64,000 bases of DNA from Oscillatoria princeps RMCB-10 (GTDB taxonomy: Bacteria; Cyanobacteriota; Cyanobacteriia; Cyanobacteriales; Oscillatoriaceae). The position numbers and the translations under genes were made by a program. Location: NCBI GenBank assembly GCA_019359235.1, contig JAHHHT010000036.1, positions 24,245 to 88,244 of the forward strand. Reading direction: 5' to 3'. Shown in pieces: positions 27,783-64,000 of this stretch. Every line of letters starts with the position of its first letter. Within the stretch, counting starts at the first letter, position 1. The notes under the pieces were generated by a model. It saw nothing but the letters and a program-made list of their open reading frames with translations. It was not told where the DNA came from and searched no databases.

Positions 27783-27835
27783 GGCTCCAGAAGCTCCCCT
27801 GCTCCAGAAGCTCCCCTGCTCCAGAAGCTCCCCTG
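27783..27835 (+). repeat. 3 x 17-nt perfect tandem repeat (GCTCCAGAAGCTCCCCT)
   Basis: ctccagaagctcccctgctccagaagctcccctgctccagaagctcccctgc, about 130 nt upstream of the argG start. Confidence 0.85.
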
Positions 27836-27961
27836 CCGCGCTCGGCGCTGACCTTGCAGCCCGGAGGAGCAAATCGTTAAGAATATCGGTAATTTTTGCT
27901 GTCCCTTGGGGAAAAGGGGTTAATAATACAAGCTTGGTAGTTTTAGGAAATATACATATCA

Positions 27962-29176: not shown

Positions 29177-29262
29177 AAAAAACCGGGGTTCTTGAAAACC
29201 CGGTTTCTTAGAGGTGACAAGAAACCGGGGTTCTTGAAGAACCCCGGTTTCTGGCCCCCATT
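29177..29262. repeat. four copies of the GAAACCCGGTTTC-family palindrome directly after the argG stop
   Basis: aaaaaccggggttcttgaaaacccggtttctt...gaaaccggggttcttgaagaaccccggtttctgg, followed by a CTTGGCG heptamer array at 29291-29330. Confidence 0.8.
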
Positions 29263-32175: not shown

Positions 32176-32282
32176 AGATCAATAATGATTATGCCAGGAA
32201 TGGGAGGCGGCGGCTGCCGGCTCTTCTATTCCTTATATTAGTTTTTCGGCTAATTTACCACTGGTGGCGGGTTTTGACCATT

Positions 32283-32400
32283 CTGACGCCGGACAGGCGT
32301 CCCGCCTGTCCTCCCGCCTGTCCGGTGCGCAGGCGGGTGCGCAGGCGAGTGCGCAGGCGAGTGCGCAGGCGAGACGCCTGCGCTACGCCTTTTTGGGGCT
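32283..32400. repeat. GGACAGGCG-family palindrome followed by 4-5 x 12-nt tandem repeat (GCGCAGGCGRGT)
   Basis: ggacaggcgtcccgcctgtcc...gtgcgcaggcgggtgcgcaggcgagtgcgcaggcgagtgcgcaggcgagacgcctgcgc, lying right where the Uma2-like gene loses its 3' end. Confidence 0.8.
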
Positions 32401-32458
32401 TCTGAGGCTCTGTTTCAATCCCGTTGCCGGGATTCAGCTGGCCAAAAATCTTCTCCTC

Positions 32459-32917
32459 CTACCCCCTGCTGAAGTCATTGTCGCATTCTTTTGGGCTTCT
32501 TTGCACAACCGGGATGCTCTCTTCCGGTGCGCCTTCCACATACCCGTCATCGCTGAGCCGCGACTGTCCGCCGGCACTGGGTTCCAGTCGCAGGAGGGCA
32601 TCTGGTTGGGGTTCGTTGTCCACATCCAGGCGCACTGTGGCATTGTCGCCCAACCGAACGCCTGGTGTGGCAGTACGGTAGACCCACAGCCAGCCGATTA
32701 TAGTGCTGTGCGGTTCAGCGTGAGGCTCAAAACGTAACGGCGACGCCATATGCACCACTCCTTCAATCAGTTCAGCTTTCTTAATGTGCGGCATAGCTTG
32801 GTAGCGCCGCTCGAATTCATATCGAGTCAGCCGATCTCCATTCTCTAGGGGCGGCAATTTTTTTGGATCTCTCGCCGGCAATTGCTCTGGGTTGCGCACT
32901 AATTTTTCGACTGTCAT
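32459..32917 (-). pseudogene. Uma2/DUF820 family (putative restriction-endonuclease-like) protein, 3'-truncated
   Basis: The N-terminal 125 aa match the DUF820 layout (LTRYEFERRYQAMP...KAELIEGVVHMASP...NEPQPDALLRLEPSAGGQSRLSDDGYVEGAPE). No frame supplies the expected continuation of roughly 60 aa. The gene instead abuts the repeat block at 32283-32400. Confidence 0.55.
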
Positions 32918-33049: not shown

Positions 33050-33900
33050 TGCCGGTTGTGTGTGACAGAAATTTTCGCAAAAATTGCACAAATTTCTGGA
33101 TTTATGCTAACCTAAGGATAATGGAAAAGGTGCGGCAATATCAGGTCACTAATGGGCCACATTCCATCAACTTCCTTCCCCGACAATCGCCTCGCATTCC
33201 CGTGGTATTCCCCTTGTTCCCAGCATCTGTAGGGTGCGTTCCGCGTGAGTGTACTCCTTATTTGTGTGCGTAAATTGATAAGGCGGAACGCACCCCCCGG
33301 TTGCGGTGCGTTCCGCGTGCGAGCCGGCACCATTCTGCGTGCGAGAATGGATTACGCGGAACGCACCCTACTTTCTACAGCTAGTTCCCCGGCGATTAGC
33401 CAGGTTCCTGGCGATTGGAAAGATGTTGTTGGCGCTCTCCGTGAGGGGTTAGACCTACAGCTAGTTCCTCCGAGATTAGCTAGGTTCCTGGCGATTGGAA
33501 AGATGTTGTTGGCGTTCTCCCTGAGGGGTTAGACGTTCTCTCTGGGAAGTAAAGAACGGCGTTGCATTGGCGAAGCGAAATTTCGGGCGCAGTCGTAAAG
33601 ATCCGCGCCGCCAATGCTTCGCCCCTACATCGGATCTTGTGTAGGGGCGAAGCATGAGCGCGACTGTTTCTGCAATCGGTGAAAAGATTACATCCGCTCA
33701 TGCTTCGCCCTTCCCCCTAGCGCTAGCTACATATAACCTTTAAAAAACCAAGCCAAAAAGGGGGTATAGGGTGGGTAAGACCCTACATCAATTCGCCAAC
33801 AGCTTCTTTCCAATCGCCGGAGAACTAGCAAAATCGCCTGGGAACTAGCTGTAACAGCTGAATATGCAACGCCATCCTCAATGCGCTCAAATGCGCTCAT
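33050..33900. repeat. non-coding repeat island (TAGGGTGCGTTCCGC hairpins, 2 x ~75-bp tandem unit, GGGGCGAAGCATGAGCG hairpins)
   Basis: 33225-33370 carries inverted gtagggtgcgttccgc/gcggaacgcaccctac units. 33360-33540 carries two tandem copies of ctacagctagttcc..gattagc.aggttcctggcgattggaaagatgttgttggcg.tctcc.tgaggggttagac. 33590-33720 carries cgaagcatgagcg palindromes also found at 62290-62430. Confidence 0.75.
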
Positions 33901-36284
33901 GCAAACCACCGGCGAATTAACTCGACCTGGAAGCGGAAACCGTCACCGGCATGTTCAATGAGTTCGCGGCGCAAAAGCAGGTTGAGGGTGCTGTCGAGGC
34001 TGTCGGGAAACTGGCGGGAGAGAAATTGCCGGCTGGCTGTTGCGCGTTCCCCCTGTGCGGCGATGCGGCGCAATACGGCTAACCCACCGGCATCTATTTG
34101 GTTGCGTTCGATGTCGGAGAAAAAGAAACTGCCACTTTCTAAAGCACGCGGCACTGCAGCTTCTATATCGGCCAAGGTGGCAAACCGGCGCACCGAGGGA
34201 TCTTGCTCGTTTTTGAGAATCACAATCTCGTTGCAGAGGAGTTGCACCAAAAAGGGGTGATGGCGGGTTAAATCTAGAACTCGCTGAACCGCATCGGGTT
34301 CATAGCGCAGGGTAAAATCTTTGATGGGGCGCTCTATCAGCTGACGCGCTTCGGGTTCTCTCAGGTAGCTGATATGCACGACTTGCACGTTGATCAGGTA
34401 GCTCGCCCAGCGCTGAAATTCCTCTATCGTGTGGGAGCCGGCTAGCAGCACTTTGAAGCGGGGGCGGTGCTGGATTAAGTGGCGCAGCATTCCCAAAATG
34501 CGCTCTTCATCAAAGCGTCCTTTCCTGATGGCGCTGTCTAAAGCCTCGAATTCATCCAAGGCAAGCAGGGCGGTATTTTGTTCGAGTGTCTTTTCGACCT
34601 GATCTAGCCATTCGTCGAAGCCGGTGAAGGGATCTGCTGCTAGGGTTTCGCGGGGGAGGGGCGGCAGATTCAATTCGCTTTTTCGCTTGGCTGAGTTGAT
34701 CATGCCTTTAGCGAGGTTGTAGAGAAAACCTGCCGGGTCACTCGCCTGTGATGCCGGTCCTTGCAAGTCCACAAACATGGGGATGATACTGTTGGGGAGC
34801 AGGCGTCCGAGGTTGTTGAGAAGGGAGGTTTTGCCCATGCGCCGCTGACCGTAGAGTAGCAAAGGGGGGCGACGCCGGTCTAGCAGTAATTGCTCGATGC
34901 GCTTGCCGATCTCAGTGCCGCTGATATCAGCGGGTTTAACAAAGATTTGCTGCTGCTCATTCAGGGGAATGCCAGTGATGTAGGGGTTGTCAATCTCTTG
35001 GCGGAGTTCAGCTTCTTTTGCCAGTTCGGACACACGCTCGGCAAGAATTTGATGCCAGCGGAGGGCGATGGGCTGAAACCGAACCGCGTATTTGTCGCTG
35101 CTGCGGGTTAAGTCCTGCAACTTAACATATAAATGAGTTGCAACAGCGCTGAGCGCTAGACGCTGGTTATAAGCACTTTCCTGATTGAGAGCAGCGTCTG
35201 CATCCTCGCTGGTGCCACTGAAGATGCGCAGCACTGCGCGGGCTGGGCTTTGCAGTTCGCTAACAACCAGAGTGCGGTGAGCGTTACGGATGGCTTCCAC
35301 ATCCGAACAGCGTTCTAAACTCCATGCGTCCAGTTCAATTTGTGTCGGCTGTGCCGCCCAGCGCTGCCGGCTGGCGATCAGGTATTCGATGGCAGCTTTT
35401 CCCTCAGTTGGGTTGCGCTCCATCACTAAGAGGAGGTGCTTGTCCAAGTCATATAGGGGAATGCGCTGCCACTTATACCAAAAGGCAGAATGCCAGCGCA
35501 ACAGACTGGGTTGAGTGCCTGTACGTTTTTTGTCCAGTTCATACAGGAGGATATTCCATACGGCTAGGAAGGGATAGAGTACCGCTGGCAGCCACAAGTT
35601 TACAGTTACTGCCACGCCCGACGCCACGCCGAACGCCACGCCGAACGCCACGCCCCACACCACGCCCCACACCACGCCCCACACCACGCCGAACGCCACG
35701 CCGAACGCCACGCCCAACGCCACGCCCCACGCCACGCCGAACGCCACGCCGAACGCCACGCCGAACGCCACGCCCAACGCCACGCCCCACGCCACGTCCG
35801 ACGCCACGCCCCACGCCACGCCCCACGCCACGCCCGACACCACGCCCAACGCCACGCCCACCCCCACGCCCCACGCCACGCCCGACACTACGCCCAACGC
35901 CACGCCCAACTCCACGCCCAACGTCACGCCCCCCGCCACGCCCCCCGCCACGGCCCACGCCACACCCCACGCCAGGGCAGGAAAAATTTTGTCAGCTGAC
36001 TCGCCTAAGCCCCACAGTACCAATCCGAGAAGTGAGTTAACTAAGATAGGCGAGAGTAGATATCCTTGGAACAGCAGCCGCCACACAGCGGGGTTCCGCC
36101 AGCGCCCCTGTCTCATCAACAAAATCAGAGAGGAGTCAGGCTTCAAATTGGGGTGAATCCTGGTTAGGTGATTGCGGAAAGCTGTGGGGCGGAAGAAAAC
36201 CCAGAACAGCAGTTGCAGCGTGCCCAGAATTAGGTTGGGGTGCTGCTTAGGTGCGTGGGTGTAGGCGTTGCGCGGGACGTTCAT
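33897..36284 (-). CDS. three-domain protein: N-terminal glycine-zipper (GxxxG-repeat) membrane domain, conserved middle domain and C-terminal AAA-like (NPYITG...GKTSLL) ATPase
   Basis: 795 aa. Residues ~100-230 read ...GVAWGVALGVAFGVAFGVAFGVAWGV...GVVWGVVWGVVWGV... Then comes a middle domain shared with the 494-aa paralog. The C-terminal ATPase has NPYITGIPL, Walker A LLLYGQRRMGKTSLL and Walker B LALDEFEALD. Confidence 0.85.
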   Translation of the reverse strand: MNVPRNAYTHAPKQHPNLILGTLQLLFWVFFRPTAFRNHLTRIHPNLKPDSSLILLMRQGRWRNPAVWRLLFQGYLLSPILVNSLLGLVLWGLGESADKIFPALAWGVAWAVAGGVAGGVTLGVELGVALGVVSGVAWGVGVGVALGVVSGVAWGVAWGVASDVAWGVALGVAFGVAFGVAFGVAWGVALGVAFGVAFGVVWGVVWGVVWGVAFGVAFGVASGVAVTVNLWLPAVLYPFLAVWNILLYELDKKRTGTQPSLLRWHSAFWYKWQRIPLYDLDKHLLLVMERNPTEGKAAIEYLIASRQRWAAQPTQIELDAWSLERCSDVEAIRNAHRTLVVSELQSPARAVLRIFSGTSEDADAALNQESAYNQRLALSAVATHLYVKLQDLTRSSDKYAVRFQPIALRWHQILAERVSELAKEAELRQEIDNPYITGIPLNEQQQIFVKPADISGTEIGKRIEQLLLDRRRPPLLLYGQRRMGKTSLLNNLGRLLPNSIIPMFVDLQGPASQASDPAGFLYNLAKGMINSAKRKSELNLPPLPRETLAADPFTGFDEWLDQVEKTLEQNTALLALDEFEALDSAIRKGRFDEERILGMLRHLIQHRPRFKVLLAGSHTIEEFQRWASYLINVQVVHISYLREPEARQLIERPIKDFTLRYEPDAVQRVLDLTRHHPFLVQLLCNEIVILKNEQDPSVRRFATLADIEAAVPRALESGSFFFSDIERNQIDAGGLAVLRRIAAQGERATASRQFLSRQFPDSLDSTLNLLLRRELIEHAGDGFRFQVELIRRWFA
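35611..35973 (-). repeat. intragenic 12-nt minisatellite (about 30 copies of GCCACGCCSMAC) encoding the GV(A/V)(W/F) glycine-zipper units
   Basis: Near-perfect tandem 12-mers gccacgccgaac/gccacgccccac/gccacgcccaac lie on the plus strand inside the 795-aa gene. A more degenerate version lies at about 38950-39500 inside the 494-aa paralog. Confidence 0.9.
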
Positions 36285-36300: not shown

Positions 36301-37392
36301 TCACTCCAACAAATGTTTGAAGGGCTGTATCTGCTGTAACCCTTCTTTGCGCCAGCCGTCTCCAGTTTGCCCATGTTCAAAACTAACCCATCGCTCTTGA
36401 CAGAGGATTTGCACCAGAAGTGGCCATCGTCCGCTTTGGGTCAAAATCCACTCTACATCCTCATCTGGGAAGGTCATCGGCGAACCGGCAATCAACTCAC
36501 GCGCCTCTGCCTCTGTCAGCGGCCCCAAAGTCGCGCTATATCCGAAAATGTTGAAAAAGGGAGAACTGTGCCCGGTGTTGTGAGCCAGTTCAACCGGCGA
36601 TTCCGGCGCTGCCAGCACAAACGCCAGATTTCCACCGGCATAATTGGTTGCCCAAGATCGCAAGCACTCCCAGAACCCATCATCTAATTCTGGACAGCGT
36701 TGCAGTGCGACGCCTATCTCATCCAGCAGGATAACTGTGGGCGAGTGCAGCTTGTCGCCAACCGCATCCATGAAGCGATCCAAATCGCAGGGGTTGGGCA
36801 CCGGCACACCCAGGCACTCTAATATATAGCGCAGCAGCCCCTCCCGGCTGTGCCGGCGGGTATCTTGGAAGTCTGCGAAAATCCAGCGATAGCGTTCTGG
36901 ATGCGGCAGCCAGTCGGACTTTTGGCCAGGGCGCAACTCTGCCGGTGGGGTGGTGGTGATGTTTTTCAGGTAGTGCAGCAGGGAAGTCTTGCCGGTGCGC
37001 TTCTTGCCGATAATGGCGGCGTTTTGCAGCGGGTGGCGTTTCAGCAAGCCGAAAATGCGTTGAAGTTCGTAGTTGCGCCCAAAGAAGTGGCGAGGGTGGG
37101 TGATGGGGTTGCCGGTGATGAAGGGCGAGAGTTCCTCAATGGGTGCCGGTGGAGGTTGTGGATCTTCCTCTTCTTTACAGGCGATTTCTTGCCAGTCAAA
37201 CCCCAGTTTCTTGCTGAGTTCTACAAAATTCAGATAATCAACGGGTTGGCCATTGAGGAAGTTCTTGACGGTAGACAGAGATGGTTCTACTGCGTCAGCC
37301 AAAGCTTGCTGGCTGGGATAGCCGTTACGCTTGAGGGCCAATTTTACTTTATTGATGTACTCTGGGGCAACCCTGATCGACCGCGACATCAC
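36301..37392 (-). CDS. XRE-type HTH domain fused to AAA-like ATPase (paralog of the ATPase domain of the downstream 795-aa gene)
   Basis: 363 aa; N-terminal HTH QQALADAVEPSLSTVKNFLNGQPVDYLNFVELSKKLG, then SPFITGNPITHPRHFFGR...AIIGKKRTGKTSLLHYL (Walker A) and VILLDEIG (Walker B). The C-terminal WPLLVQILCQE parallels HPFLVQLLCNE in the 795-aa protein. The stop lies 17 nt before the next start. Confidence 0.85.
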   Translation of the reverse strand: MMSRSIRVAPEYINKVKLALKRNGYPSQQALADAVEPSLSTVKNFLNGQPVDYLNFVELSKKLGFDWQEIACKEEEDPQPPPAPIEELSPFITGNPITHPRHFFGRNYELQRIFGLLKRHPLQNAAIIGKKRTGKTSLLHYLKNITTTPPAELRPGQKSDWLPHPERYRWIFADFQDTRRHSREGLLRYILECLGVPVPNPCDLDRFMDAVGDKLHSPTVILLDEIGVALQRCPELDDGFWECLRSWATNYAGGNLAFVLAAPESPVELAHNTGHSSPFFNIFGYSATLGPLTEAEARELIAGSPMTFPDEDVEWILTQSGRWPLLVQILCQERWVSFEHGQTGDGWRKEGLQQIQPFKHLLE

Positions 37393-37545: not shown

Positions 37546-37866
37546 ATGTTGAATGAAACCCAAAACACCAACCAGACGTTACCCTCTACTTCTGAACCTG
37601 ATGGCGCTGTTCTGGACATGGAGCGAGAGTTCATGGAAGAACGCTTTCGTCAAGCTCGTCTCAGCTTCAACCTGACTCTCGGACTGACAGCAGTGAGTGC
37701 TTTCATCAGTGTTGTGGGTGTCGGACTTTTGTTTGCGGGGAAAGTTCCAGAAGGAAGCGTCACGACAGCTGGGGGGTTGAGTTCAAATCTTGTCAGCGTG
37801 CGCTTATTAAGGCTGACTAAGGAAACCAATGACCGGCTGGACAAAATGGCTCACGAGAGAATGTAG
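37546..37866 (+). CDS. small hypothetical protein with one predicted transmembrane helix
   Basis: 106-aa ORF divergent from the HTH-ATPase gene. It has a hydrophobic segment LTLGLTAVSAFISVVGVGLLFAG and is followed by GAAACCCGGTTTC palindromes. The call is tentative. Confidence 0.3.
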   Translation: MLNETQNTNQTLPSTSEPDGAVLDMEREFMEERFRQARLSFNLTLGLTAVSAFISVVGVGLLFAGKVPEGSVTTAGGLSSNLVSVRLLRLTKETNDRLDKMAHERM

Positions 37867-38290
37867 GGTGGGTTCCGCGCTATCTATTATCGCACATAAT
37901 GGGTTGGGTGAGAAACCGGGTTTCTTGAAGAAACCCGGTTTATTGGGGGCAGGGGGGTGGGTTCCGCCTTATGGATTTCCGCACACAAATCAGGGGTGCG
38001 GTCAGGCGGAACCCACCCTACTTACTATTGTAACCTGTATCGCGTGCCGGTGGCAAGAAAGCCGATTATTATAGCAATAGACAGTCAGTTTAGGACACTG
38101 GGACACGAGATACAAGGTATAGGCGTAGGGCAGGCGTCTCGCCTGCCCTTAAGGTCTCTGGGACAGGCGAGACGCCTGTCCTACGTCCTAACCTAAGTGG
38201 CTGCTGCTATATAGATTTTAGGAGGCAGAGCCTCCTTATTGGCGCTCCCAACCTTGGCGTCCTTGGCGTCTTGGCGGTTCCTCATTAATC
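37861..38290. repeat. intergenic cluster of dispersed repeats (GGGTGGGTTCCGC hairpin pair, GAAACCCGGTTTC palindromes, GGACAGGCG palindromes, CTTGGCG heptamers)
   Basis: Inverted gtagggtgggttccgc (37865) pairs with ggcggaacccaccctac (38005). The other elements are agaaaccgggtttcttgaagaaacccggttt (37921), gggcaggcgtctcgcctgccc / ggacaggcgagacgcctgtcc (38130-38190) and ccttggcgtccttggcgtcttggcggtt (38250). Confidence 0.8.
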
Positions 38291-38317: not shown

Positions 38318-39802
38318 TCATTCAGCGCCTGTGATGTGGGGGCTGCCGGCTTGTTGTTCAACTTCTGCCGCCAGTTCGCGGACACAACCGGCTACAATGT
38401 CATACCAGCGAAGGGCAATGGGGTAAAAACGAAGGGCGTCTTTATCGCCACAGGCGGTTAACTCCCGCAAGAAGTTATCCAGATTCTGCGCGACAGCGCT
38501 GAGGGCTAGCAGCCGGTTAAAGGCACTCTCCTGACTCACACCGGCATCTACTTCTTGGCTAATCTGGCCAAAGCTGATCAGCCAAATACCGGCAGGGCTT
38601 TCTAAATCACCGGCACCCAATTTTTGGTGTGCGTTACTGATATCTCGCACGCCGGCACAGTTTTCTAAACTCCTGGCGTCTATTTCAATCTGCGCCGCCA
38701 GCGCCGCCCAGCGCTGCCGGCTGGATTTCAGGTAGTTAATTGCGGCTTTGGCTTCATCGGGATTGCGCTCCAGTATCAAAATCAGGTGCTTGTCTAATTT
38801 AGGGAAAGGCAAAAACTGCCACTCATGCCAGAATGCAGAGTGCCGGTGCAACAAACTGAATTGACTCCCTGCAAATCGTTTGTCCAGTTGATAGAGGAGG
38901 ATATTCCACACTGCTAACAGAGGATAAAATACCACCGGCAGCCAATAGTTGACAGACACTCCCAGAGCGAACGCCACCCCCGACGCCACCCCCGACGACA
39001 GGCCAAATGCTAGACCCAAGGTGACAATCGACGCCAAGCGCCACCCGACGCGCCACGCGATGTCGGGCGAGACGCCGGGAACCACGCCCGACACCACGCC
39101 CAACACCACGCCCAAGGTGACGCCGGACATCACGCCCAACACCACGCCCAAGGCAAGACCGGATGCCAAACTGGACACCAGACCGGAGGCCACGTGAAAC
39201 GCGACGCCCAGCCCGACGCCAAACACCACGCCCAATCCGACGCCCCACCCCACACTCCGCTTGGCGCTAAACCCCGGACTCAAGGTGACGCCCAGGACTG
39301 CGCCCGACGCCGCGCCCAACCCGACGCCCCACCCGACGCCCCACGCGAACCCCAACGCCAAATTGAGCGCCACGCCCAGCGCCGCAGTCAGCCCGACGCC
39401 CAAGGTGACAGCTAGGGCCACGCCTGAGGCCACACCCCACTGCACGCCCGACGCCACCCACGATGTCAGCCCCCACCGCACGCCCGACGCCACGCGCCAG
39501 AAAATGATTTCTTTTGACTCGCCCAGTACCGACAGCACTAAACCCAGGATTGAAAATGCCAGGAAAGGTAAGATCAAATATTCCTGTATTAGCAGTCGCC
39601 ACAAAGCGCAGTTGCGCCACCGCAAACGGGTGCCCTGTTGCCCATTGGGGGTTAAGGCGGGGTCAATGCGGGTGAGGTGATTGCGCCATGCTGAGGGGCG
39701 GAAGAAAAGCCAGAACAGCAGTTGCAAACTGCCCAGAATAATATTGGGGTGCTGTTCGGGCGCATCTGTGTAGCTGTTGGGTGGAACAGTGGGAGAGGTC
39801 AT
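38318..39802 (-). CDS. paralog of the 795-aa gene with glycine-zipper membrane domain and middle domain but no ATPase domain
   Basis: 494 aa. The N-terminal 95 aa are highly similar (NIILGSLQLLFWLFFRPSAWRNHLTRI vs NLILGTLQLLFWVFFRPTAFRNHLTRI). The GxxxG-rich region is degenerate. The middle domain is conserved (WLPVVFYPLLAVWNILLYQLDKR...). The protein ends at ...PHITGAE, exactly where the ATPase starts in the paralog (NPYITGIPL). Confidence 0.8.
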   Translation of the reverse strand: MTSPTVPPNSYTDAPEQHPNIILGSLQLLFWLFFRPSAWRNHLTRIDPALTPNGQQGTRLRWRNCALWRLLIQEYLILPFLAFSILGLVLSVLGESKEIIFWRVASGVRWGLTSWVASGVQWGVASGVALAVTLGVGLTAALGVALNLALGFAWGVGWGVGLGAASGAVLGVTLSPGFSAKRSVGWGVGLGVVFGVGLGVAFHVASGLVSSLASGLALGVVLGVMSGVTLGVVLGVVSGVVPGVSPDIAWRVGWRLASIVTLGLAFGLSSGVASGVAFALGVSVNYWLPVVFYPLLAVWNILLYQLDKRFAGSQFSLLHRHSAFWHEWQFLPFPKLDKHLILILERNPDEAKAAINYLKSSRQRWAALAAQIEIDARSLENCAGVRDISNAHQKLGAGDLESPAGIWLISFGQISQEVDAGVSQESAFNRLLALSAVAQNLDNFLRELTACGDKDALRFYPIALRWYDIVAGCVRELAAEVEQQAGSPHITGAE

Positions 39803-39914: not shown

Positions 39915-41738
39915 CTAAGCGCTGACAAAGGAAACGGCGACGCGAAATCCGAAGCGGTTATTGCGAATTTCCGGCACTACTCTGCAGCGGAAAGCGGAAC
40001 GGCAATCCCTGGGGTTGCTGAACCAAGAACCCCCGCGCAGCAACCGGCGATATTGATTTCCACCGGCATCCCAAACACCCCCATCAGCTAGCGCACCTGT
40101 GTAATTATCATGCCACGGATCGGCGCACCACTCCCAGACATTCCCGTGGGTGTCGTACAAACCAAAAGTGTTGGCTGGAAAACTCCCCACATCCGCTGTC
40201 TGTTTGCTATAGATTCCTTTGGGTTCAGAAGCGTAAATATAGTGACCGTGATAATTAGCTAATTCAGTCGTAACTGTCTCGCCAAAGTGGAAAGGTGTAG
40301 TGCAGGCGTCCTCGCCTGTACCTATTTTATAGGCGTCCTCGCCCGCACACGCGCGACAGGCGTATTCCCATTCCGCCTCGCTGGGTAAGCGGTAGTTGCG
40401 CCCGGTTGCTTGGGACAGTCGCGCACAAAATTCGGCAGCCTCGTTCCAGGATACATTCTCCACCGGCCTGTTTGCGCCTTTGAAATAAGACGGATCGGGA
40501 TTTAAATCCAGGTACACCTTGGGTAAAGCTGCGACAGCTTTCCACTGCGCCTGAGTTATGGGATATTTCCCCATAAAAAAGGGTTGCACTTTTACCAGGT
40601 GCTGCGGGCTTTCCTCATTATATCGCCCTGACTCAGTTTTTGGGGAACCCATCAGGAAAGTTCCCCCCGGAATTGACACCATTTCCAGGTTCAACCCGCC
40701 TCCCAAGTCATGGGCAAAGTATTCCGCTTGCCGGCGCGTGCGGTTGATTTCTCGCCCGTGCGCGTCTACCGTGATTGCGTCGAAGGCAAAAAACTGCAAG
40801 GGTGTTTTGCCTGAGGGGGGAGAGGTGCTAACCGAAATGGGCAATCCCGACGTGACGAATCCAATCCCGACAAAACCGGCTGCTTTAAAAAGTTGCCGGC
40901 GCGTTGGGGAATCCTCTTTCATCAGGGAGGAAACAGCTTGCAGCGCTTCCACTGCAGACGGGTAGCGCAGGCGAGAGTCACAGCGCACCATTGTGTCTAA
41001 AATCTTTGCCAGCTGGGGGCTAACTTGCACTTTGTTGCGCCAGATAATGTCACCCGTCTGGGGATTTTCTGGCAATCGCCGGGGAAAGATGCCGGTGAGC
41101 GCTTGTATTGCAGTCATTCCCAGCGCGTAAACATCGCTGCTAAACTGGGGTTTGCCCTTCGCTTGCTCACCCGGCATGTATCCGGGGGTGCCAATCCCAA
41201 CGGTCAAACTCGTCTGAGCTGGCGCATTTGCCACTTGGGTGCAGACTTGCTTAATTGCGGCAAAGTCTATCAAGACGATTTTACCATCTTGGCGGCGTCG
41301 GATTAAGTTTGCCGGTTTGATATCGCGGTGGATGACACCTTCTTTATGCGCGTGAGAAAGGACTGTCAGCACATCCAGCAAAAAGGCAATCGTCCGTTCT
41401 TCAGTCCACCGGCATCCCGGTTTGATTTCCGCAGACAGGTTCTCTCCTTCTATAAATTCTCGCACGAGATAGAACTCTTGATTCTCCTCGAAGTGAGCCA
41501 AAAATCCGGGAATTTGGTCGTGTTCGCCCAATTTCTGGAGGAGTTTAGCTTCCGTGTCGAATAGGGTTCTGGCAATCTCCAACGCGGACAGATTGTTGGA
41601 CAGGGGTTTGAGCTGTTTGACGACGCACGCAGGACTATCTGGTAACTGGGTGTCTGAGGCGAGGAAAGTTGACCCAAATCCTCCGCCTCCCAAGTGTTTG
41701 ACGATCTTATAGCGCCCCGCAAGGGTTGTTCCCAACAT
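39915..41738 (-). CDS. Ser/Thr protein kinase fused to C-terminal FGE-sulfatase (formylglycine-generating-enzyme-like) domain
   Basis: 607 aa; kinase subdomains GGGGFGSTF...VVKQL, HRDIKPANL, DFAAIK. The C-terminal FGE fold has RLPSEAEWEYACRA, HGNVWEWCADPWH and RGGSWFSNPRDCRSAFR. Confidence 0.9.
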   Translation of the reverse strand: MLGTTLAGRYKIVKHLGGGGFGSTFLASDTQLPDSPACVVKQLKPLSNNLSALEIARTLFDTEAKLLQKLGEHDQIPGFLAHFEENQEFYLVREFIEGENLSAEIKPGCRWTEERTIAFLLDVLTVLSHAHKEGVIHRDIKPANLIRRRQDGKIVLIDFAAIKQVCTQVANAPAQTSLTVGIGTPGYMPGEQAKGKPQFSSDVYALGMTAIQALTGIFPRRLPENPQTGDIIWRNKVQVSPQLAKILDTMVRCDSRLRYPSAVEALQAVSSLMKEDSPTRRQLFKAAGFVGIGFVTSGLPISVSTSPPSGKTPLQFFAFDAITVDAHGREINRTRRQAEYFAHDLGGGLNLEMVSIPGGTFLMGSPKTESGRYNEESPQHLVKVQPFFMGKYPITQAQWKAVAALPKVYLDLNPDPSYFKGANRPVENVSWNEAAEFCARLSQATGRNYRLPSEAEWEYACRACAGEDAYKIGTGEDACTTPFHFGETVTTELANYHGHYIYASEPKGIYSKQTADVGSFPANTFGLYDTHGNVWEWCADPWHDNYTGALADGGVWDAGGNQYRRLLRGGSWFSNPRDCRSAFRCRVVPEIRNNRFGFRVAVSFVSA

Positions 41739-42019: not shown

Positions 42020-43873
42020 TTAAGGAGTCCTCGCCAAAGAAAAGGCTACGCGAAAACCGCAGTTATTCTTGCGATGGTCTGGCCCAACCCCGCTACGGTA
42101 AGCCGAACGGCAACGCCAGGGTATGTTCTCCCAAGAAGCTCCAGGCGCCACAAAATGTTTTAGATCGGCTTCCCAGACACTCCCATCAGACGGCGCACCA
42201 ATATAATTACCGTGCCACGGATCGGCGCACAATTCCCAGACATTCCCGTGCATCTCGTATAGCCCAAAGGCGTTCGGCGGAAACCTGCCCACATCTGTTG
42301 TCCCTCCGTTATTGTGTAAATAGTTAGCCAAATCGGGGGTAATCGTCTCGCCGAAGTGGAATGGAGTTGTGGTTCCTGCGCGACAGGCGTATTCCCACTC
42401 CGCCTCGCTGGGGAGTCGGTAGTTGCGCCCGGTTGCTTGGAAAAGTCGGGCACAAAATTCCACCATCTCGTTCCAGGATACTTGCTCCACCGGCCTATTT
42501 GCGCCTTTGAAATAAGAAGGTTCGGGATTTAAGTCGCGGCTGACTTTGGGTAAAGAGGCGACAGCTTTCCACTGCGCCTGAGTTACAGTATATTTGCCCA
42601 TAAAAAAGGGTTTCACTGTTACCCAGTGCTGTGGTTTTTCACGGTTTTCGTCGTCTTCGCTTGGCGGGGAACCCATCAGAAAGGTTCCCCCCGGAATCGA
42701 CACCATTTCTAAAATCACTCCGTCTCCTACGTCATGGGGAAAGAATTCAGCTTGCTGGCGCGTGCGGTTGATTTCTCGCCCCCCCGCGTCTACTGTGATT
42801 ACATCGAAGGTAAAAGTTTGCAAAGGGGAAACCTCAACAATTGTGGAAGAGGGAGAAGTCGTGAAAACCTGACGGGCGAATACCGACGCCACAAATCCCC
42901 CACCGGCAAATCCCGCCAGCTTGAAAACTTGCCGGCGCGTCAGGGGGGAATTCGGTTTTGTCAAAGAAGAAACCGCTTGCAGCGCCTCAGATGCTGACGA
43001 GTAGCGCTGGCGGTAATCATAGCGCACCATTTTATCTAAAATGTTTGCCAACTTCGGACTAACTTGCGCCCTGTTGCGCCAGAGAATTTCACCCGTCTGC
43101 GGATCTTCTGGCAATTGCCTCGGGGGGATGCCGGTGAGGGCTTGAATTGCCGTGATTCCCAGGGCGTAAACATCGCTGCTCAACTGGGGTTTGCCCTGAG
43201 CTTGCTCACTCGGCATGTATCCGGGGGTGCCAATCCCAACTGTCAAACTCGTCTGACTCTGCTGCGCATTGGGCACCTGCGTGCTGACTTGCTTAATTGC
43301 CCCAAAGTCTATCAAGATGATTTTCCCATCTTGGCGGCGTCGGATTAAGTTTGCCGGTTTGATATCGCGGTGGATGACACCCTCCTGATGGGCGTAAGAA
43401 AGGGCTGTCAGCACCTCCAGCAAAAAGGCAATCACCCGTTCTTCTGCCCACTTGCATCCCGGTTTGATTTCCTCGCACAGACTGTCGCCCTCGATGAATT
43501 GCTGCACTAGATAGAATTCTTGATTTTCCTCAAAGTGAGCCAAAAGGCTGGGAATTTGGTCGTGTTCGCCCAATTTCTGGAGAACCCTAGCTTCGGTGTT
43601 GAATAACCGTCTGGCAATCTTCAGGGTAGACGGATCGTTCGACTGGGGTTTGAGCTGTTTAACGACGCACACAGGATTGTCTGGTAGCTGCGTGTCTGAG
43701 GCTAGGAAAGTTTGGCCAAATCCCCCGCCTCCCAGATATTTGACGATTTTATAGTGCCTCTTAAGGGTTCGTCCCAACATGGCTTTGATGCAGTGTCTGG
43801 CAAGTTTTTCTCCAGCATACAGCCTTTTGCCACAAATGTCAATCCCCTTTTTGGCAAAAGTTTTCACCCTCAC
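42020..43873 (-). CDS. Ser/Thr protein kinase::FGE-sulfatase fusion, tandem paralog (likely start at internal Met, coordinate 43780)
   Basis: 617-aa ORF. The sequence from MLGRTLKRHYKIVKYLGGGGFGQTF onward is collinear with the downstream paralog (about 70% identity by eye). The 31 aa before it are probably not translated. Confidence 0.9.
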   Translation of the reverse strand: MRVKTFAKKGIDICGKRLYAGEKLARHCIKAMLGRTLKRHYKIVKYLGGGGFGQTFLASDTQLPDNPVCVVKQLKPQSNDPSTLKIARRLFNTEARVLQKLGEHDQIPSLLAHFEENQEFYLVQQFIEGDSLCEEIKPGCKWAEERVIAFLLEVLTALSYAHQEGVIHRDIKPANLIRRRQDGKIILIDFGAIKQVSTQVPNAQQSQTSLTVGIGTPGYMPSEQAQGKPQLSSDVYALGITAIQALTGIPPRQLPEDPQTGEILWRNRAQVSPKLANILDKMVRYDYRQRYSSASEALQAVSSLTKPNSPLTRRQVFKLAGFAGGGFVASVFARQVFTTSPSSTIVEVSPLQTFTFDVITVDAGGREINRTRQQAEFFPHDVGDGVILEMVSIPGGTFLMGSPPSEDDENREKPQHWVTVKPFFMGKYTVTQAQWKAVASLPKVSRDLNPEPSYFKGANRPVEQVSWNEMVEFCARLFQATGRNYRLPSEAEWEYACRAGTTTPFHFGETITPDLANYLHNNGGTTDVGRFPPNAFGLYEMHGNVWELCADPWHGNYIGAPSDGSVWEADLKHFVAPGASWENIPWRCRSAYRSGVGPDHRKNNCGFRVAFSLARTP

Positions 43874-44005: not shown

Positions 44006-45649
44006 CTACAGGCTCTTAATGCTCAAATCCACATCTGCCGGGGTAAAATATAACTGGGCGCTGCCCTCGCTCAAGGCGGCAATGGCATCCTGTTTCCGCA
44101 AAGTATTAAAAATCGCCAGCTTGTCCGATTTTGACATGCCATTACCCAACCCGTCAAAGAACGCCCTGACGCGAATTGCCTCCGCCTCACCGGCAGTTAG
44201 CGCTTCGGTTTGCGCGTGCTCCCGGCGCAAGTCCAGCAGCTGTCCCTTCTGCCGCTCAACTTCAATCTCCCCCTCTATCTCCTTAAGTTTAACATCATTA
44301 TCGCCCTCCTGTTTCTGCAGCCGGTTCAGCCGGTTCGTCGTCTCCTGAATAATCTCTATCAAAATCCGCTGCGTGTCCGGATCTTTGCAAGCGACTGAGC
44401 GCACTTCCACCGCATGAAGCGCCACCCCACGATCGGCATAAAAGCTGTCCTCCACCCCCAGCACCGCTTGTCTGACTATGGCATTAAACCCCGCCAGAAA
44501 TCTTTCCAGCGATACCTGCGATACGGACTGAATAATCAGGCTGCGGACGTGGGCGCAAATCGCGCCGCTGGTATCGTCTGTCGCCTGCACCATCGCCGCC
44601 ACATCCACAATCTGCCAGAAGAAGGTCAAGCCGATAATTAATTCTACATTATCCTGCGTTCGCGTTTCAAATTCGTACCACATAAACTTGGGTCGCCCGT
44701 CAATGTGGGTGAAGATGAGATTTTTCTCGTCTTTGTGCAGCCCGCTGGCCCACCGGAATTCCACCAGCTCCTCATACGGCTGCAAAAAGAAAGACCGTTC
44801 GGCGTCAGTTCCCTGTTTTATGCTATAATCGCCAAAGCGGTCTTTGACGACGACCGTTTCGTGATTCTCCAGCAAGATGCGCCGGCGCACTTCTACGATT
44901 TTTTGATTCGCCTCCGGAGAGAAAACCTGCGGTTCTGTTATCAATTCTAGGGTGCCGGTTTGCGTGTCTCGCACCAGCACTGCCGTGTGTTCGTCAATAT
45001 TGACCCCTTCCCCGATGCTGCCTAAAATCTCTTCCGCCGGATTGAGGTAGAAACTCCTCTCGCCCCGCTCAACGCGAATCATGCCGGTGCTTTTATCAAT
45101 CACCTTGACATATTGATTTTGCTGCAGTAAAATAGGCTTGCGGAGTTCGACAATTTCCTGATTGGCAGCTGGAATGAACACTTGGGGTTGGGAAATCAGC
45201 TGCAGCTGGCCGGTGGAAATATCTCGCACCAGCACCGCTGTTTGCTCATCAATATTGACTCCCTCCCGCACCGGCTCCAAAATCTCTTCAGTGGGGTTGA
45301 GACAGACACTGCGATCGCCCCTTTCCACCCGAATCGCGCCGGTGCGCTTGTCAATCAGCCGGATGTACTGGTTGCTCTTCAGGGGAATGGCGGACCGCTG
45401 TTCCAGGATTTCCTCACTCGCCGCCGGGAAGAACAGCTTGGGGCCAAATTCGTTGCGCAACTCGCCGGTGAGGGTGTCGCGCAGGCGCAGGTAGTCCGTA
45501 GGGCCAAGGGTTTTGGCCTTGCGGCGCTGCACCCGCCACCAGGGCTGGGAGTAAAACACGGCGGGTCCATTCACTGTCCACCGGCGCGTGAAGCCCTCGA
45601 CGATCAGCTGTTCGTCTTCTTTGAGATAATAGATCCAGGGCAAAAACAT
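44006..45649 (-). CDS. major-vault-protein (MVP) repeat / SPFH (band-7)-like domain protein
   Basis: 547 aa. It has three tandem repeats of about 55 aa (QYIRLIDKRTGAIRVERGDRSVCLNPTEEILE.. / QYVKVIDKSTGMIRVERGERSFYLNPAEEILG.. / ETVVVKDRFGDYSIKQG..ERSFFLQPYEEL), as in MVP shoulder repeats. These are followed by an SPFH-like core and a coiled-coil tail. Confidence 0.65.
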   Translation of the reverse strand: MFLPWIYYLKEDEQLIVEGFTRRWTVNGPAVFYSQPWWRVQRRKAKTLGPTDYLRLRDTLTGELRNEFGPKLFFPAASEEILEQRSAIPLKSNQYIRLIDKRTGAIRVERGDRSVCLNPTEEILEPVREGVNIDEQTAVLVRDISTGQLQLISQPQVFIPAANQEIVELRKPILLQQNQYVKVIDKSTGMIRVERGERSFYLNPAEEILGSIGEGVNIDEHTAVLVRDTQTGTLELITEPQVFSPEANQKIVEVRRRILLENHETVVVKDRFGDYSIKQGTDAERSFFLQPYEELVEFRWASGLHKDEKNLIFTHIDGRPKFMWYEFETRTQDNVELIIGLTFFWQIVDVAAMVQATDDTSGAICAHVRSLIIQSVSQVSLERFLAGFNAIVRQAVLGVEDSFYADRGVALHAVEVRSVACKDPDTQRILIEIIQETTNRLNRLQKQEGDNDVKLKEIEGEIEVERQKGQLLDLRREHAQTEALTAGEAEAIRVRAFFDGLGNGMSKSDKLAIFNTLRKQDAIAALSEGSAQLYFTPADVDLSIKSL

Positions 45650-48643: not shown

Positions 48644-48720
48644 TACAGAAACCCGGTTTCTTGGAGAAACCGGGTTTCTTGGCTGGTTTCTTGGCAGTTT
48701 CTTGGCAGCCCTCCTACCTA
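48644..48720. repeat. GAAACCCGGTTTC palindromes followed by GGTTTCTTGGC tandem units at the egtB 3' end
   Basis: cagaaacccggtttcttggagaaaccgggtttcttggctggtttcttggcagtttcttggcag. Confidence 0.8.
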
Positions 48721-54793: not shown

Positions 54794-55009
54794 GAAAGGT
54801 TATTTTATTCTTGCTGGAATCGTTGTGAATCCTAGCTGGTTGATCTATATGTAGTCTTTTGCGCAATTGCCGGGCATGGGGCATGGGGCATTGGGCATGG
54901 GATTTTCATGCTTTCGTTGCGCCCAATGGGGTGTGGGGGGCTGACTGGCAGTTTCTCAAATAGAACCGTTTGGTTGTGTTTGGAGCGTCGGGGGAAAATC
55001 ATCGAGGTT

Positions 55010-62914: not shown

Positions 62915-64000
62915 CTACTCTTCGAGCAAGCGCTTCAGTTCCTCATCCGTGAAGGGATTATTCCCCGCTTTCAGGGCGTCAACCCAGCGCTGCCTTTGCG
63001 ATTTTTCCTTCTTATAAAAATCCTTACTCCCAGAAGGTAGATTGTCAATCCAAGCGATGTATGCCTGAAAGTCCTCAATCGCGCCTTTTGGGTTGCCGGT
63101 GAGCGCCCGGGCAATGCCGCGACTGTCGCGATACCTTTCATTATAAGGAGCGAGGGCTACGGCTTTCTCGCAGGCAAACATCACGTCTTTGGCGTGCCGG
63201 TGCAAACTGCCGTACCTGCAGAGAGTATTCCAAGACTCCGCATAAATCTCAAAGTTTGGGTCGAGCTTTTGGGCTTGTGCGTAAGCGGCGATGGCTTCCC
63301 TCACCTTGCCTTCCTTGACAAGCTCTTCTCCCTTTTTCACTATAACGGTTGCCGGCTCAACGTTAGGGTCGAGTTGCAATGCCTTCTGAAATTCCGCCAC
63401 CGCAGCTTCAATATTGCCCTCTTCGGCAAGCTGTTCGCCCTTCTTAATTCGTTCGGAAGCTTCTGCTAATTGCTTGGCTTTGGTTTCTGGATTGAGGGGT
63501 AAGCTGGGATTCCACTTTAAGGCGGTGCGGAAAGTAGCAACTGCTCCATCAACATTGCCTCCTCTCGCTTCCTCCTCCCCTTCCTTAACCAGAAATGGCG
63601 CGGCGTCCCGCCGATTGGATTGGGTTTGGCACACTTCTAGTTTTTCCAAGTCTTTGGGATGGGTGATAAGGTAATCGTTGAGCCAGTTGCAACCCCTCAC
63701 CAGCAGTTCGTCTAAGCTGTAAACCCGCCACACCCGGGCTGTCATATCAGAGGAGGCGGTGACGATGCGCTTTCCGTCGGGGCTGAAACTGGCGCTGTAG
63801 ACAGGACTCTGATGCCCTTTTAGCTCGTACAGCTGCTTGCCGGTGCTGTCCCACACCCGGGCTGTATTGTCAAAGGAGGCGGTGACGATGCGCTTTCCGT
63901 CGGGGCTGAAACTGGCGCTGTTGACAGCATCCTGATGCCCTTTTAGCTCGTACAGCTGCTTGCCGGTGCTGTCCCACACCCGGGCTGTTCTGTCAGAGGA
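62915..64000 (-). CDS. WD40-repeat protein with C-terminal TPR-like domain, partial (N-terminus beyond window end)
   Basis: Repeated ...DSTGKQLYELKGHQDAVNSASFSPDGKRIVTASFDNTARVW units are present. The reading frame stays open to position 64000. The C-terminal half has TPR-like AxxxFxxALxxNP repeats. Confidence 0.8.
   Translation of the reverse strand, partial: SSDRTARVWDSTGKQLYELKGHQDAVNSASFSPDGKRIVTASFDNTARVWDSTGKQLYELKGHQSPVYSASFSPDGKRIVTASSDMTARVWRVYSLDELLVRGCNWLNDYLITHPKDLEKLEVCQTQSNRRDAAPFLVKEGEEEARGGNVDGAVATFRTALKWNPSLPLNPETKAKQLAEASERIKKGEQLAEEGNIEAAVAEFQKALQLDPNVEPATVIVKKGEELVKEGKVREAIAAYAQAQKLDPNFEIYAESWNTLCRYGSLHRHAKDVMFACEKAVALAPYNERYRDSRGIARALTGNPKGAIEDFQAYIAWIDNLPSGSKDFYKKEKSQRQRWVDALKAGNNPFTDEELKRLLEE

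Follow-up and report, generated by a model that had tools for sequence, protein, structure and literature searches.

A 12-nt coding minisatellite in the hydrophobic N-terminal module of a cassette NTPase of Oscillatoria princeps RMCB-10, with signs of unit turnover and GC-biased renewal

Introduction

In-frame VNTRs of bacterial surface and membrane proteins, as well as contingency loci, shift their copy number by slippage or unequal recombination. The cyanobacterial short tandem repeats known as STRR have heptanucleotide units and are mostly intergenic. In addition, the highly conserved WD40, TPR and ANK repeats of NLR-like STAND proteins from fungi and multicellular bacteria evolve by shuffling. 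As for modules acting on membranes, the TM effectors of CBASS and Pycsar couple a switch to a small hydrophobic module which depolarises or permeabilises the membrane, and the CRISPR effector Cam1 is reportedly a TM effector of the abortive-infection type. The glycine-zipper motifs of TelE are required for its membrane-damaging activity (PMC10434224), and the article lists CdzC/D, Tse4 and VacA among the pore formers with glycine zippers.

Here we analyse a 64,000-nt stretch of contig JAHHHT010000036.1 of Oscillatoria princeps RMCB-10 (the window), in which a tandem array of 12-nt units lies inside the gene of an NTPase, hereafter the host gene. The literature searched yielded no description of such a membrane-array NTPase family or of a GxxxG-encoding minisatellite, and the architecture was not found in Kaur et al. 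2020 (PMC7159879) or Kaur et al. 2021 (PMC8195603). Our main reading, to which we give a probability of about 0.6, is that a turnover-prone coding minisatellite lies in the membrane module of a cassette NTPase, is renewed with a GC bias and, with lower confidence, may provide the zipper effector of a conflict system.

The host protein and its cassette

The features of the window on which the analysis is based are listed by position.

33897..36284, minus strand: host gene, 795 aa (open reading frame list; at least 1928 homologs)
34818..34850, minus strand: Walker A motif GQRRMGKTSLL (aa 479-489), invariant in alignments of 30 and 109 homologs
34995..35600, minus strand: post-array domain (aa 229-430), consisting of the last hydrophobic helix (WLPAVLYPFLAVWNILLY) and then an all-helical cytoplasmic domain
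35611..35974, minus strand: 12-nt coding minisatellite of about 30 units (Tandem Repeats Finder, TRF), encoding aa 104-225 of the 795-aa host
36301..37392, minus strand: partner gene, 363 aa, with an N-terminal domain of about 95 aa and a P-loop NTPase (weak Pfam matches to AAA_22 and AAA_16)
37546..37866, plus strand: small divergent gene, 106 aa, with a CyanoTRADDas_TM 2-TM domain (PF20712, E=1.6e-20)
38318..39802, minus strand: truncated paralog, 494 aa, with N-terminal membrane region, degenerate array and helical domain

The host protein begins with a conserved membrane region (aa 1-100), continues with the array (aa 104-225) and with the last hydrophobic helix and helical domain (aa 229-430), and its C-terminal part is a P-loop NTPase with a winged helix (aa ~461-795). 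Pfam matched it to AAA_22 (32.3 bits) and to nSTAND1 (22.7 bits, under the 27.1 cut-off); the homolog P0016 scores 29.3 bits with nSTAND1 (PF20703), and several homologs are named 'nSTAND1 domain-containing NTPase' by NCBI. NCBIfam gave no informative match, the Pfam glycine-zipper families (Gly-zipper_Omp, _OmpA, _YMGG) gave none at E<=0.1 for either the host or the paralog, and PDB sequence searches with the family profile and with the partner returned nothing significant. The Walker B motif reads ..LLALDEFE (D577, E578), and its columns did not vary in either homolog alignment (30 and 109 homologs). Behind the P-loop NTPase, which carries both Walker motifs (GKT(S), hhhhDE), comes a helical and winged-helix module, the STAND-type arrangement. 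The chain stops at aa 795, directly behind the winged helix, and neither Pfam nor AF2 revealed C-terminal sensor repeats (TPR, WD40, LRR). Identity of the NTPase part across orders is 60-73%, unusually high for an immune sensor.

An AF2 model built from 109 sequences had a mean pLDDT of 77 and was good throughout except in the array, with values of 88-98 for the post-array domain; another model, built from 30 sequences, was too poor for use (pLDDT 56.8). Foldseek related the host model to NRC3/NRC4 resistosomes, ORC/Cdc6, RuvB and NLRP9 (E from 3.8e-6 to 3e-4). Searched against 1.84 billion proteins, the post-array domain matched no more than 296 representatives at E<=1e-3. Among the best 150 of these 296 matches, the full-length proteins place the domain upstream of an NTPase-sized region, and the others are short fragments. 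The NTPase, an uncharacterised protein with the AAA+/STAND fold, is encoded by the second gene of the cassette, and its hydrophobic N-terminal module consists mostly of the array.

The divergent CyanoTRADDas_TM gene, the 363-aa NTPase and the membrane-array NTPase form a conserved cassette of filamentous cyanobacteria and some Anaerolineae. The stop codon of the partner lies 17 nt upstream of the host start codon, and in 72 of 82 loci a partner precedes the host gene on the same strand, mostly with 61-75% identity and with lower values in three Chloroflexi-type loci. Both proteins have in common a P-[FY]-ITG-x-P motif and the P-loop (27% identity over 93 aa, E=2e-4). A CyanoTRADDas_TM gene stands upstream of the partner on the opposite strand in 20 loci; the domain owes its name to its association with TRADD-N. 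Beyond the cassette the flanking genes differ, being kinase-FGE genes and a Uma2 gene in the window and an inserted PIN-domain gene pair in Nostoc loci. PADLOC-DB v2 gave no defence-system match, but only matches of P-loop length to PDC-S01 and PDC-S27 (E ~1e-3).

Sequence and reading frame of the array

TRF delimited the array at 35611-35974, with a period of 12, 30.3 copies, 87% matches, 0 indels and a score of 462; the plus-strand consensus was GCCACGCCCAAC. An earlier sequence-only reading had set the limits at 35611-35973, which agrees to one base. On the coding strand the unit is GGC GTG GCG NNN, giving Gly-Val-Ala-x where x is mostly W, F, L or S, and 30 units (GVAW, GVAF, GVAL, GVAS, GVVW, etc.) follow each other in frame at 35607-35966 within the minus-strand ORF 33897-36284, so that the GVA(F/W) translation proposed for that strand was correct. 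The same reading had spoken of roughly 30 near-perfect copies; the number stands, but 'near-perfect' was somewhat generous, as 14 of the 30 units fit its pattern GCCACGCC(G/C)(A/C)AC exactly and 19 of the 30 fit GCCACGCCNNNC. Exact self-matches inside the array are up to 53 nt long at an offset of 60 and up to 34-35 nt long at offsets of 12, 108 and 120.

With at least 1928 homologs, the minus-strand ORF 33897-36284 is, as judged from homology, the true gene frame. The unit is thus a multiple of 3 nt, repeated head-to-tail and in frame within a real gene, as in a coding minisatellite. Two further candidates were rejected as genes, namely the plus-strand 'PRPT' ORF at 35324-36040 and an alternative minus-frame ORF at 35539-35970, given that homologs were found only for the GVAx frame. 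Both ORFs are by-products of a coding strand that is nearly devoid of A (A4 C65 G217 T78, i.e., 4 A in 364 nt). On the coding strand, three candidate G-quadruplex motifs (G3+ x4) lie at the array's 5' end.

Synonymous codons and GC bias

Synonymous codons are almost uniform along the array: GGC 27/31, GTG 34/35, GCG 22/23, TTG 6/7, TCG 4/4 and TTC 7/7, against background fractions of 0.38, 0.45, 0.35, 0.23, 0.16 and 0.42, respectively. With respect to local codon usage, this uniformity has a log10 P of -48. The third codon positions of the unit are invariant in 29 of 30 units, codon 4 being the variable one, and the variation between units is restricted to nucleotides 8 and 10-12. Because synonymous sites are almost uniform, the array was amplified at the DNA level; the earlier proposal of an in-frame minisatellite existing in the DNA, beyond a repeat at protein level, is therefore borne out.

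The bias was measured as GC3 of the four-fold Gly/Val/Ala codons, which replaced the GC content of the whole array; the latter was rejected as evidence of codon bias since these codons are GC-rich at positions 1-2 regardless. In every one of the 32 loci with a regular array, the GC3 of the array exceeded that of the remaining gene (medians 0.78 vs 0.36; Wilcoxon p = 4.7e-10), whereas for 21 irregular arrays the medians were 0.38 and 0.33, not a significant difference. The GC3 excess correlates with the regularity of the array (Spearman rho = 0.75). Regular arrays across genera share GC-rich GGC-GTG-GCG codons against host codon usage, and simple neutral drift of the array consensus is no explanation for this. 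These data raise the question of which force holds GC-rich synonymous codons in AT-rich genomes, biased slippage or recombination on the one hand or selection for mutability on the other.

Turnover between relatives

Close relatives were obtained solely from a genome scan: protein-database searches returned no relative above 73% identity and lacked the ortholog of Oscillatoria PCC 10802 too, and a metagenome scan for close relatives gave only 3 distant loci, without copy-number information. The closest genome is that of PCC 10802, whose flanks are 95.9% identical at nucleotide level and 96.4% at four-fold sites (565 flanking codons). Its array has 28 units instead of the 30 of the window, in reshuffled order, and its F, W, L and S unit types are encoded by the same codons as in the window. 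Nostoc DedQUE03 and DedQUE02 showed 0 mismatches over 14,262 bp, their sole difference being a 60-nt tandem duplication (5 units) in the array, which could be an assembly effect. Array alleles differ by +20 aa and -36 aa, and the array-equivalent segment spans 40-272 aa across 70 family loci. These differences match the earlier suggestion that the unit number may vary between strains.

Copy number thus differs in unit multiples between close relatives, with the caveat that assembly versions of the same strain disagree. Two versions of the same Nostoc strains encode products of 717 and 753 aa, and of 753 and 773 aa, which indicates that part of the apparent variation may be assembly error. Many database entries begin directly after the array, and we read them as contigs breaking there. 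Given these truncated entries and the length altered by re-assembly of the same strain, array copy numbers in short-read assemblies should not be trusted. One MAG contig lacks aa 68-231; it has 3x coverage and is only 2.2 kb long, and it was left out of the evidence. No array indels appeared in 7 sets of near-identical full-length alleles (90% clusters), and the length differences within additional 90% clusters mostly came from start-codon calls or fragments and not from array indels. The 7 unchanged sets argue against very high rates and point to a moderate instability, not one of the contingency-locus kind.

The truncated paralog ends at the P-x-ITG motif and lacks the NTPase, of which no remnant was found anywhere in the window. 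Outside the array it is 57-61% identical to the host. Its degenerate array (aa 101-290, ~38933-39502) had been placed at about 38950-39500 from the sequence alone; in it the TRF output is limited to short sub-arrays with periods of 12, 24 and 36 within 38971-39359, and its codons are mixed. In PCC 10802 the paralog is intact (498 aa, ~92% aa identity) and its array is colinear with 0 array indels. Colinearity between the same two Oscillatoria genomes fits the earlier view of it as a degenerated copy.

Taken together, the comparisons show an array in which 12-nt units, and blocks of several units (e.g., 60 nt), are duplicated, deleted and reshuffled, the frame always being kept. In DNA-regular arrays this turnover outpaces point substitution in the flanks; no turnover was seen in the single degenerate array compared.

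Proposed mechanism and alternative explanations

On our main reading, replication slippage or unequal recombination would turn the units over, and a bias to GC-rich, G-skewed units, or selection at DNA or RNA level, would keep regenerating the array. The following steps are put forward with lower confidence. The Gly-Val-Ala-x array may form a membrane-embedded, self-packing glycine-zipper surface, oligomerisation of the NTPase may gather several of these surfaces so that the membrane is perturbed or permeabilised, and the module would then be the effector of a system of the conflict or abortive-infection type. Unit number might drift because array length is only loosely constrained. The membrane-perturbing role is inferred by analogy with known effectors. 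Considerations against the effector view are that PADLOC matches do not go beyond P-loop noise, that sequence identifies no solved homolog, and that the NTPase is 60-73% conserved across orders and lacks C-terminal sensor repeats.

The alternatives concern the reality of the array, its structure and its function. An artefact in which mis-assembly made the repeat or its copy number seems very improbable. The discordant lengths in assembly versions of the same Nostoc strains, the many entries starting after the array and the 3x-coverage contig entirely without it could be read in that way; nevertheless, an 8.63-Mb JGI contig agrees with the window without a single difference along 22,388 nt, and two further contigs on record encode exactly the same 795-aa product. 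These exact matches make gross collapse unlikely, against the artefact that the sequence-only reading had named as what would refute it. Moreover, the independently sequenced PCC 10802 has a comparable array of 28 units, and arrays occupy the same position in dozens of genomes. As for structure, the array satisfies the glycine-zipper pattern (G/A/S)xxxGxxxG with 26 GxxxG steps at aa 114-223, and Kyte-Doolittle windows >=1.6 tile nearly all of aa 112-248, with E125 and D163 as the only charged residues inside the array. The hydropathy agrees with the transmembrane zipper that had been proposed, but AF2 gives the array helices at a pLDDT of just 33-41 (109 sequences). We consider it rather improbable, although less so than an artefact, that the array is not an alpha-helical TM zipper and forms a beta structure of the silk or amyloid type, or an interfacial hydrophobic polymer, in either case with a freely variable length. 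An extended G-V-A-x chain would alternate small (G, A) with bulky (V; W, F or L) residues, AF2 fails to place the array, the segment lengths are continuous from 40 to 272 aa with no helical-hairpin quantisation, and indels of 20 and 36 aa would gain or lose whole spans under a strict multi-pass model. Against this, both AF2 models give helices, with low confidence, for most of the segment, its unbroken hydrophobicity adjoins clear TM helices as fits membrane insertion, and some homologs carry a helical 2-TM T4SS-pilin-like module in place of the array.

With regard to function, an adaptive contingency locus, the diversification mechanism thought possible in the sequence-only reading, would keep the repeat mutable because changes in the number or make-up of its units are useful, perhaps by tuning or diversifying the membrane module against phage inhibitors or in kin/non-self discrimination within filaments. 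The GC-rich unit maintained against host codon bias in 32/32 regular arrays fits this proposal, as do unit differences that are nearly all non-synonymous (codon 4 and the middle base of codon 3) with synonymous sites fixed, the same codons for the F, W, L and S types in PCC 10802 and the link of the cassette to a domain named for TRADD-N association. However, the 7 near-identical allele sets are unchanged, a mechanistic bias by which GC-rich units slip or recombine more could mimic the pattern without selection, and many family members function with fully degenerate arrays or another membrane module, and the proposal is in our opinion unlikely. Its widest form, in which a self-renewing, frame-preserving contingency array, maintained across cyanobacterial orders for its mutability, continually alters the size and make-up of the zipper effector of an undescribed two-NTPase conflict cassette, is equally doubtful. 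We give the same low credence to a housekeeping membrane NTPase, for example in membrane or septum organisation, where the array would be a tolerated low-complexity anchor with no conflict role. Such a protein would be expected to be as conserved across orders as the NTPase and partner are (60-75%) and as widespread in filamentous cyanobacteria and Anaerolineae, and no known defence system was matched; on the other side are the unconserved neighbourhood beyond the cassette (window vs Nostoc loci), the paralogous and truncated copies inside single genomes, the linkage to CyanoTRADDas_TM and the existence of database fragments and an array-less variant.

If the main reading holds, this would be a clear coding minisatellite building a membrane-embedded segment and not an exposed surface domain. 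Its variants offer a natural length series for glycine-zipper packing, with which it can be asked whether unit number matters for membrane activity.

Comparison with known systems

The nSTAND1/STAND conflict systems (PMC7159879, PMC8195603) likewise combine a P-loop NTPase with a helical and winged-helix module in filamentous multicellular bacteria. The host resembles nSTAND1 systems in its weak to borderline PF20703 matches, in the nSTAND1 names given by NCBI and in the adjoining CyanoTRADDas_TM gene. It is unlike them in having no effector-associated, Death-like or TRADD-N domains and no C-terminal sensor repeats, and in belonging to a two-NTPase cassette.

By analogy, the TM effectors Cam1, CBASS and Pycsar would share with the proposed host model an oligomerisation or signalling switch together with a hydrophobic membrane module. 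In the host, switch and membrane module are predicted to be fused in one polypeptide, and the module to be a long variable repeat. High DNA identity, gain, loss and reshuffling of units, and variation at few codons are common to this array and to the WD40, TPR and ANK repeats of STAND proteins, but the latter are C-terminal ligand sensors with units of ~100-126 nt, whereas here the unit has 12 nt and builds an N-terminal membrane module.

In TelE, CdzC/D, Tse4 and VacA, too, a hydrophobic segment carries GxxxG repeats whose glycines are separated by small or hydrophobic residues, according to PMC10434224, where the motif is said to drive helix packing and membrane damage in these proteins (Kim et al. 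2005, as cited there). The known zippers have 2-6 glycines per helix, while this array runs through up to 26 GxxxG steps in succession, covers ~120 aa and is encoded by a minisatellite; between these pore formers and the array there is no sequence homology.

The array does not match STRR repeats, having a period of 12 and being coding. It resembles in-frame coding VNTRs and contingency loci, with which it shares DNA-homogeneous head-to-tail units and a copy number that changes between close relatives while the frame is kept. Known coding VNTRs build an exposed adhesin or antigen, whereas this one builds a hydrophobic, probably membrane-embedded glycine-zipper segment of a cytoplasmic NTPase and, unlike them, has a GC-rich unit that persists across genera against host codon usage.

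The 12-nt array and its codons

Tandem Repeats Finder identified one strong array at 35611-35974, with a period of 12, 30.3 copies, 87% matches, no indels and a score of 462, whose consensus on the plus strand is GCCACGCCCAAC. It is enclosed by a minus-strand ORF of 795 aa (33897-36284), in whose frame 30 Gly-Val-Ala-x units follow one another at 35607-35966, x being W in 9, F in 7, L in 6, S in 4, G in 2 and V in 2. These 30 consecutive in-frame units confirmed the minus-strand minisatellite that a sequence-only reading had described; calling its copies near-perfect was slightly overstated, as the pattern proposed there is exact in only 14 of them. The longest exact self-matches were of 53 nt at an offset of 60 and of 34-35 nt at offsets of 12, 108 and 120.

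Table. Codon choice in the array, and background fraction in 19 long ORFs of the window
Gly GGC: 27/31; 0.38
Val GTG: 34/35; 0.45
Ala GCG: 22/23; 0.35
Leu TTG: 6/7; 0.23
Ser TCG: 4/4; 0.16
Phe TTC: 7/7; 0.42

Against the codon use of these 19 ORFs, the joint probability of the synonymous choices of the array is about 1e-48. The third positions of the Gly, Val and Ala codons are each invariant in 29 of the 30 units, and unit-to-unit differences fall at nucleotides 8 and 10-12, nearly all of them being non-synonymous. The array is a repeat at the DNA level, beyond the repeat in the protein. Spurious ORFs open in other frames because of the composition of its coding strand (A4 C65 G217 T78; GC skew +0.54).

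Array variation between relatives

The segment matching aa 101-228 of the host protein spans 40-272 aa in 70 loci, and GxxxG steps range from 0 to 31 among 120 homologs. The closest relative, Oscillatoria sp. PCC 10802, shows full synteny with the window and, over 565 flanking codons, identities of 93.6% (amino acids), 95.9% (nucleotides) and 96.4% (four-fold sites); its array comprises 28 units, in an order clearly different from that of the 30 units of the window and with the same codons. Over 14,262 bp, the loci of Nostoc sp. DedQUE03 and DedQUE02 are free of mismatches, and they are set apart solely by a tandem duplication of 60 nt (5 units) within the array. All four alleles of this 90% cluster differ solely by in-frame array indels (+20 and -36 aa), the shorter ones coming from alternative assemblies of these two strains. 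Units of 12 nt and multi-unit blocks were shown to be gained, lost and reshuffled in frame, and replication slippage or unequal recombination would be the cause.

Two rival explanations bear on this variation, namely that the repeat is an assembly artefact and that it is an adaptive contingency locus. Against the former, 22,388 nt of the window are identical to an 8.63-Mb JGI contig, and identical entries for the 795-aa product exist on two further contigs. On the other side, many database entries start directly after the array, and an uncultured Oscillatoria MAG contig (2231 nt, about 3x coverage) holds an ortholog, 92% identical, with an in-frame absence of aa 68-231, that is, one membrane helix and the entire array, which may reflect either a natural deletion or an assembly error. 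These observations, together with the length conflicts between assembly versions, indicate that short-read assembly of such arrays is unreliable. As for a contingency locus, no array indels were found in seven further groups of full-length, near-identical alleles. The instability of the array is real over evolutionary timescales, but not extreme; the variation in unit number suggested from the sequence is supported to this extent by the PCC 10802 and DedQUE differences.

The slot of the array is also occupied otherwise. In a Microcoleus ARI1 cluster (P0063, P0178-P0181) arrays consist of other 8-aa (24-nt) units, such as GGVASNFM and GVVRNVVW / GVVVVVW, and several gene calls begin within the array. 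Among the longer homologs, some have a T4SS-pilin-like 2-TM module here: in P0052, P0059, P0062, P0064 and P0078 (886-914 aa) a T4SS_pilin (PF18895) match, checked for P0052 and P0062 and taken from precomputed annotations for the other three, replaces the Gly-zipper array. Therefore, the variable slot takes different self-associating membrane modules.

The truncated paralog

The more degenerate copy noticed in the paralog was found in the minus-strand ORF 38318-39802, at aa 101-290 (about 38933-39502), with mixed codons. This paralog lacks the NTPase and stops precisely at the conserved P-x-ITG motif. Both Oscillatoria genomes retain it intact (494 aa, and 498 aa at 2769-4262 of the PCC 10802 locus; about 92% identity), which suggests a functional stand-alone membrane and helical-domain protein rather than a decaying pseudogene. 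Its array is colinear between the two, without indels; in this pair, turnover tracks DNA-level regularity.

Composition of the unit

A GGC-GTG-GCG unit is common to regular arrays of different genera, and most of these genomes are AT-rich. The GC3 of the array, computed from four-fold Gly, Val and Ala codons alone, exceeded that of the remainder of its own gene in 32/32 regular-array loci (medians 0.78 vs 0.36; Wilcoxon p = 4.7e-10), and did not differ significantly from it in the 21 loci with irregular arrays (medians 0.38 and 0.33). Regularity correlated with GC3 excess (Spearman rho = 0.75), and the GCG fraction of Ala codons was 0.78 in arrays vs 0.13 elsewhere. Neutral concerted evolution should move the array consensus to host composition, like other synonymous sites; therefore, either GC-rich, G-skewed units would be mechanistically favoured in the slippage or recombination by which arrays are repeatedly rebuilt, or the DNA or RNA sequence would be under selection. 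This conservation across genera despite host codon usage is the most interesting part of the analysis.

Protein architecture and cassette

Features of the host protein and its neighbours
Host aa 1-100: conserved N-terminal membrane region
Host aa 104-225: array
Host aa 229-430: last hydrophobic helix and all-helical domain
Host aa ~461-795: P-loop NTPase and winged helix
36301-37392, minus strand: partner gene, 363-aa NTPase, 17 nt upstream of the host gene
37546-37866: small divergent gene with a CyanoTRADDas_TM domain, recurring in 20 loci

In Pfam, AAA_22 was over threshold and nSTAND1 slightly under (22.7 vs 27.1 bits); the homolog P0016 clears the nSTAND1 threshold, and several others are named nSTAND1 NTPases at NCBI. 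Walker A (GQRRMGKTSLL, aa 479-489) and Walker B (D577 and E578) are invariant in 109 sequences. The AlphaFold2 model built with 109 sequences (mean pLDDT 77, pTM 0.60) is confident throughout except at aa 121-222, in the array (pLDDT 33-41), and its C-terminal half resembles NLR resistosomes (NRC3, NRC4), ORC/Cdc6, RuvB and NLRP9. The domain directly after the array is family-specific: a search of 1.84 billion proteins gave 296 representatives at E<=1e-3.

A scan with one genome per species gave 295 relatives, in Nostoc, Microcoleus, Oscillatoria, Calothrix, Scytonema, Brasilonema, Tychonema, Mastigocoleus, other cyanobacteria and several Anaerolineae. The partner, which has a P-[FY]-ITG-x-P motif and the P-loop in common with the host protein, lies upstream on the same strand in 72/82 loci (identity mostly 61-75%); outside the cassette genes the neighbourhood varies from genome to genome. 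In the Nostoc DedQUE loci (5112-5722), a 73-aa and a PIN-domain gene, VapBC-like, are inserted between the partner and the array NTPase. Calothrix sp. PCC 7103 scaffold KB217480.1 carries two cassette copies about 280 kb apart, with the same values in every locus-survey statistic, suggestive of a recent duplication. Immediately upstream of the paralog is a tandem pair of genes, both of the Ser/Thr-kinase plus FGE-sulfatase type (39915-41738 and 42020-43873, minus strand), the first syntenic in PCC 10802 and the second matching PADLOC PD-T4-6 kinase models (E = 3e-104).

In toxins such as TelE, CdzC/D, Tse4 and VacA, helix packing and membrane damage are driven by glycine zippers (PMC10434224). 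Otherwise, the domains encoded in the cassette are limited to two NTPases and one 2-TM protein. The simplest model, proposed with lower confidence, is that an NTP-dependent oligomerisation switch would gather the Gly-zipper modules, that these may then perturb the membrane, and that zipper length would be under loose constraint. The array is hydrophobic without interruption, E125 and D163 being its sole charged residues, and clear membrane helices lie on both sides; a non-helical structure, beta or interfacial, is a rival for this segment of low model confidence. A housekeeping role of the cassette is another alternative to the membrane-perturbing switch. PADLOC, NCBIfam and PDB sequence searches gave no informative match, and the host family was found neither in conflict-system papers nor in wider literature searches.

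Other repeats and comparison with known systems

Repeats elsewhere in the window
57118-57216, 57228-57308, 59419-59534, 59524-59601: 30-nt and 33-nt tandem repeats, 3-4 copies, 76-89% matches
33375-33534: two copies (92%) of a direct repeat of 80 nt, located a few hundred nt past the stop codon of the host gene
27784-27836: perfect 17-nt repeat, 3.1 copies
32325-32373: 12-nt repeat, 4.1 copies (97%), overlapping ORF 32264-32737 and directly upstream of the Uma2-family ORF 32459-32917
29179-29209, 37911-37945, 48647-48682: recurring palindrome resembling AGAAACCCGGTTTCTTGG, perhaps a hairpin repeat of dispersed type; one of its copies is directly downstream of the paralog
63728-64000: 123-nt (41-aa) repeat, 2.2 copies, 92% identity, running past the window end

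The 30-nt and 33-nt repeats form, besides the host array, another set of coding minisatellites read in frame; they lie within N-terminal extensions of about 135 aa of two of three tandem ammonium-transporter paralogs (54908-56674, 56972-58660 and 59299-60951, plus strand; Pfam Ammonium_transp, E about 1e-120). A 547-aa major-vault-like protein with Vault_3, MVP_shoulder and Band_7/SPFH matches is encoded at 44006-45649 (minus strand). The 123-nt repeat lies in the minus-strand ORF 62915-63979, a WD40 and TPR protein, and therefore represents WD40 units of high DNA identity, as likewise found in NLR-like proteins. The array of the host gene is itself an in-frame VNTR, a known kind of repeat, and in this case encodes a predicted membrane glycine zipper in an AAA+/STAND-fold NTPase.
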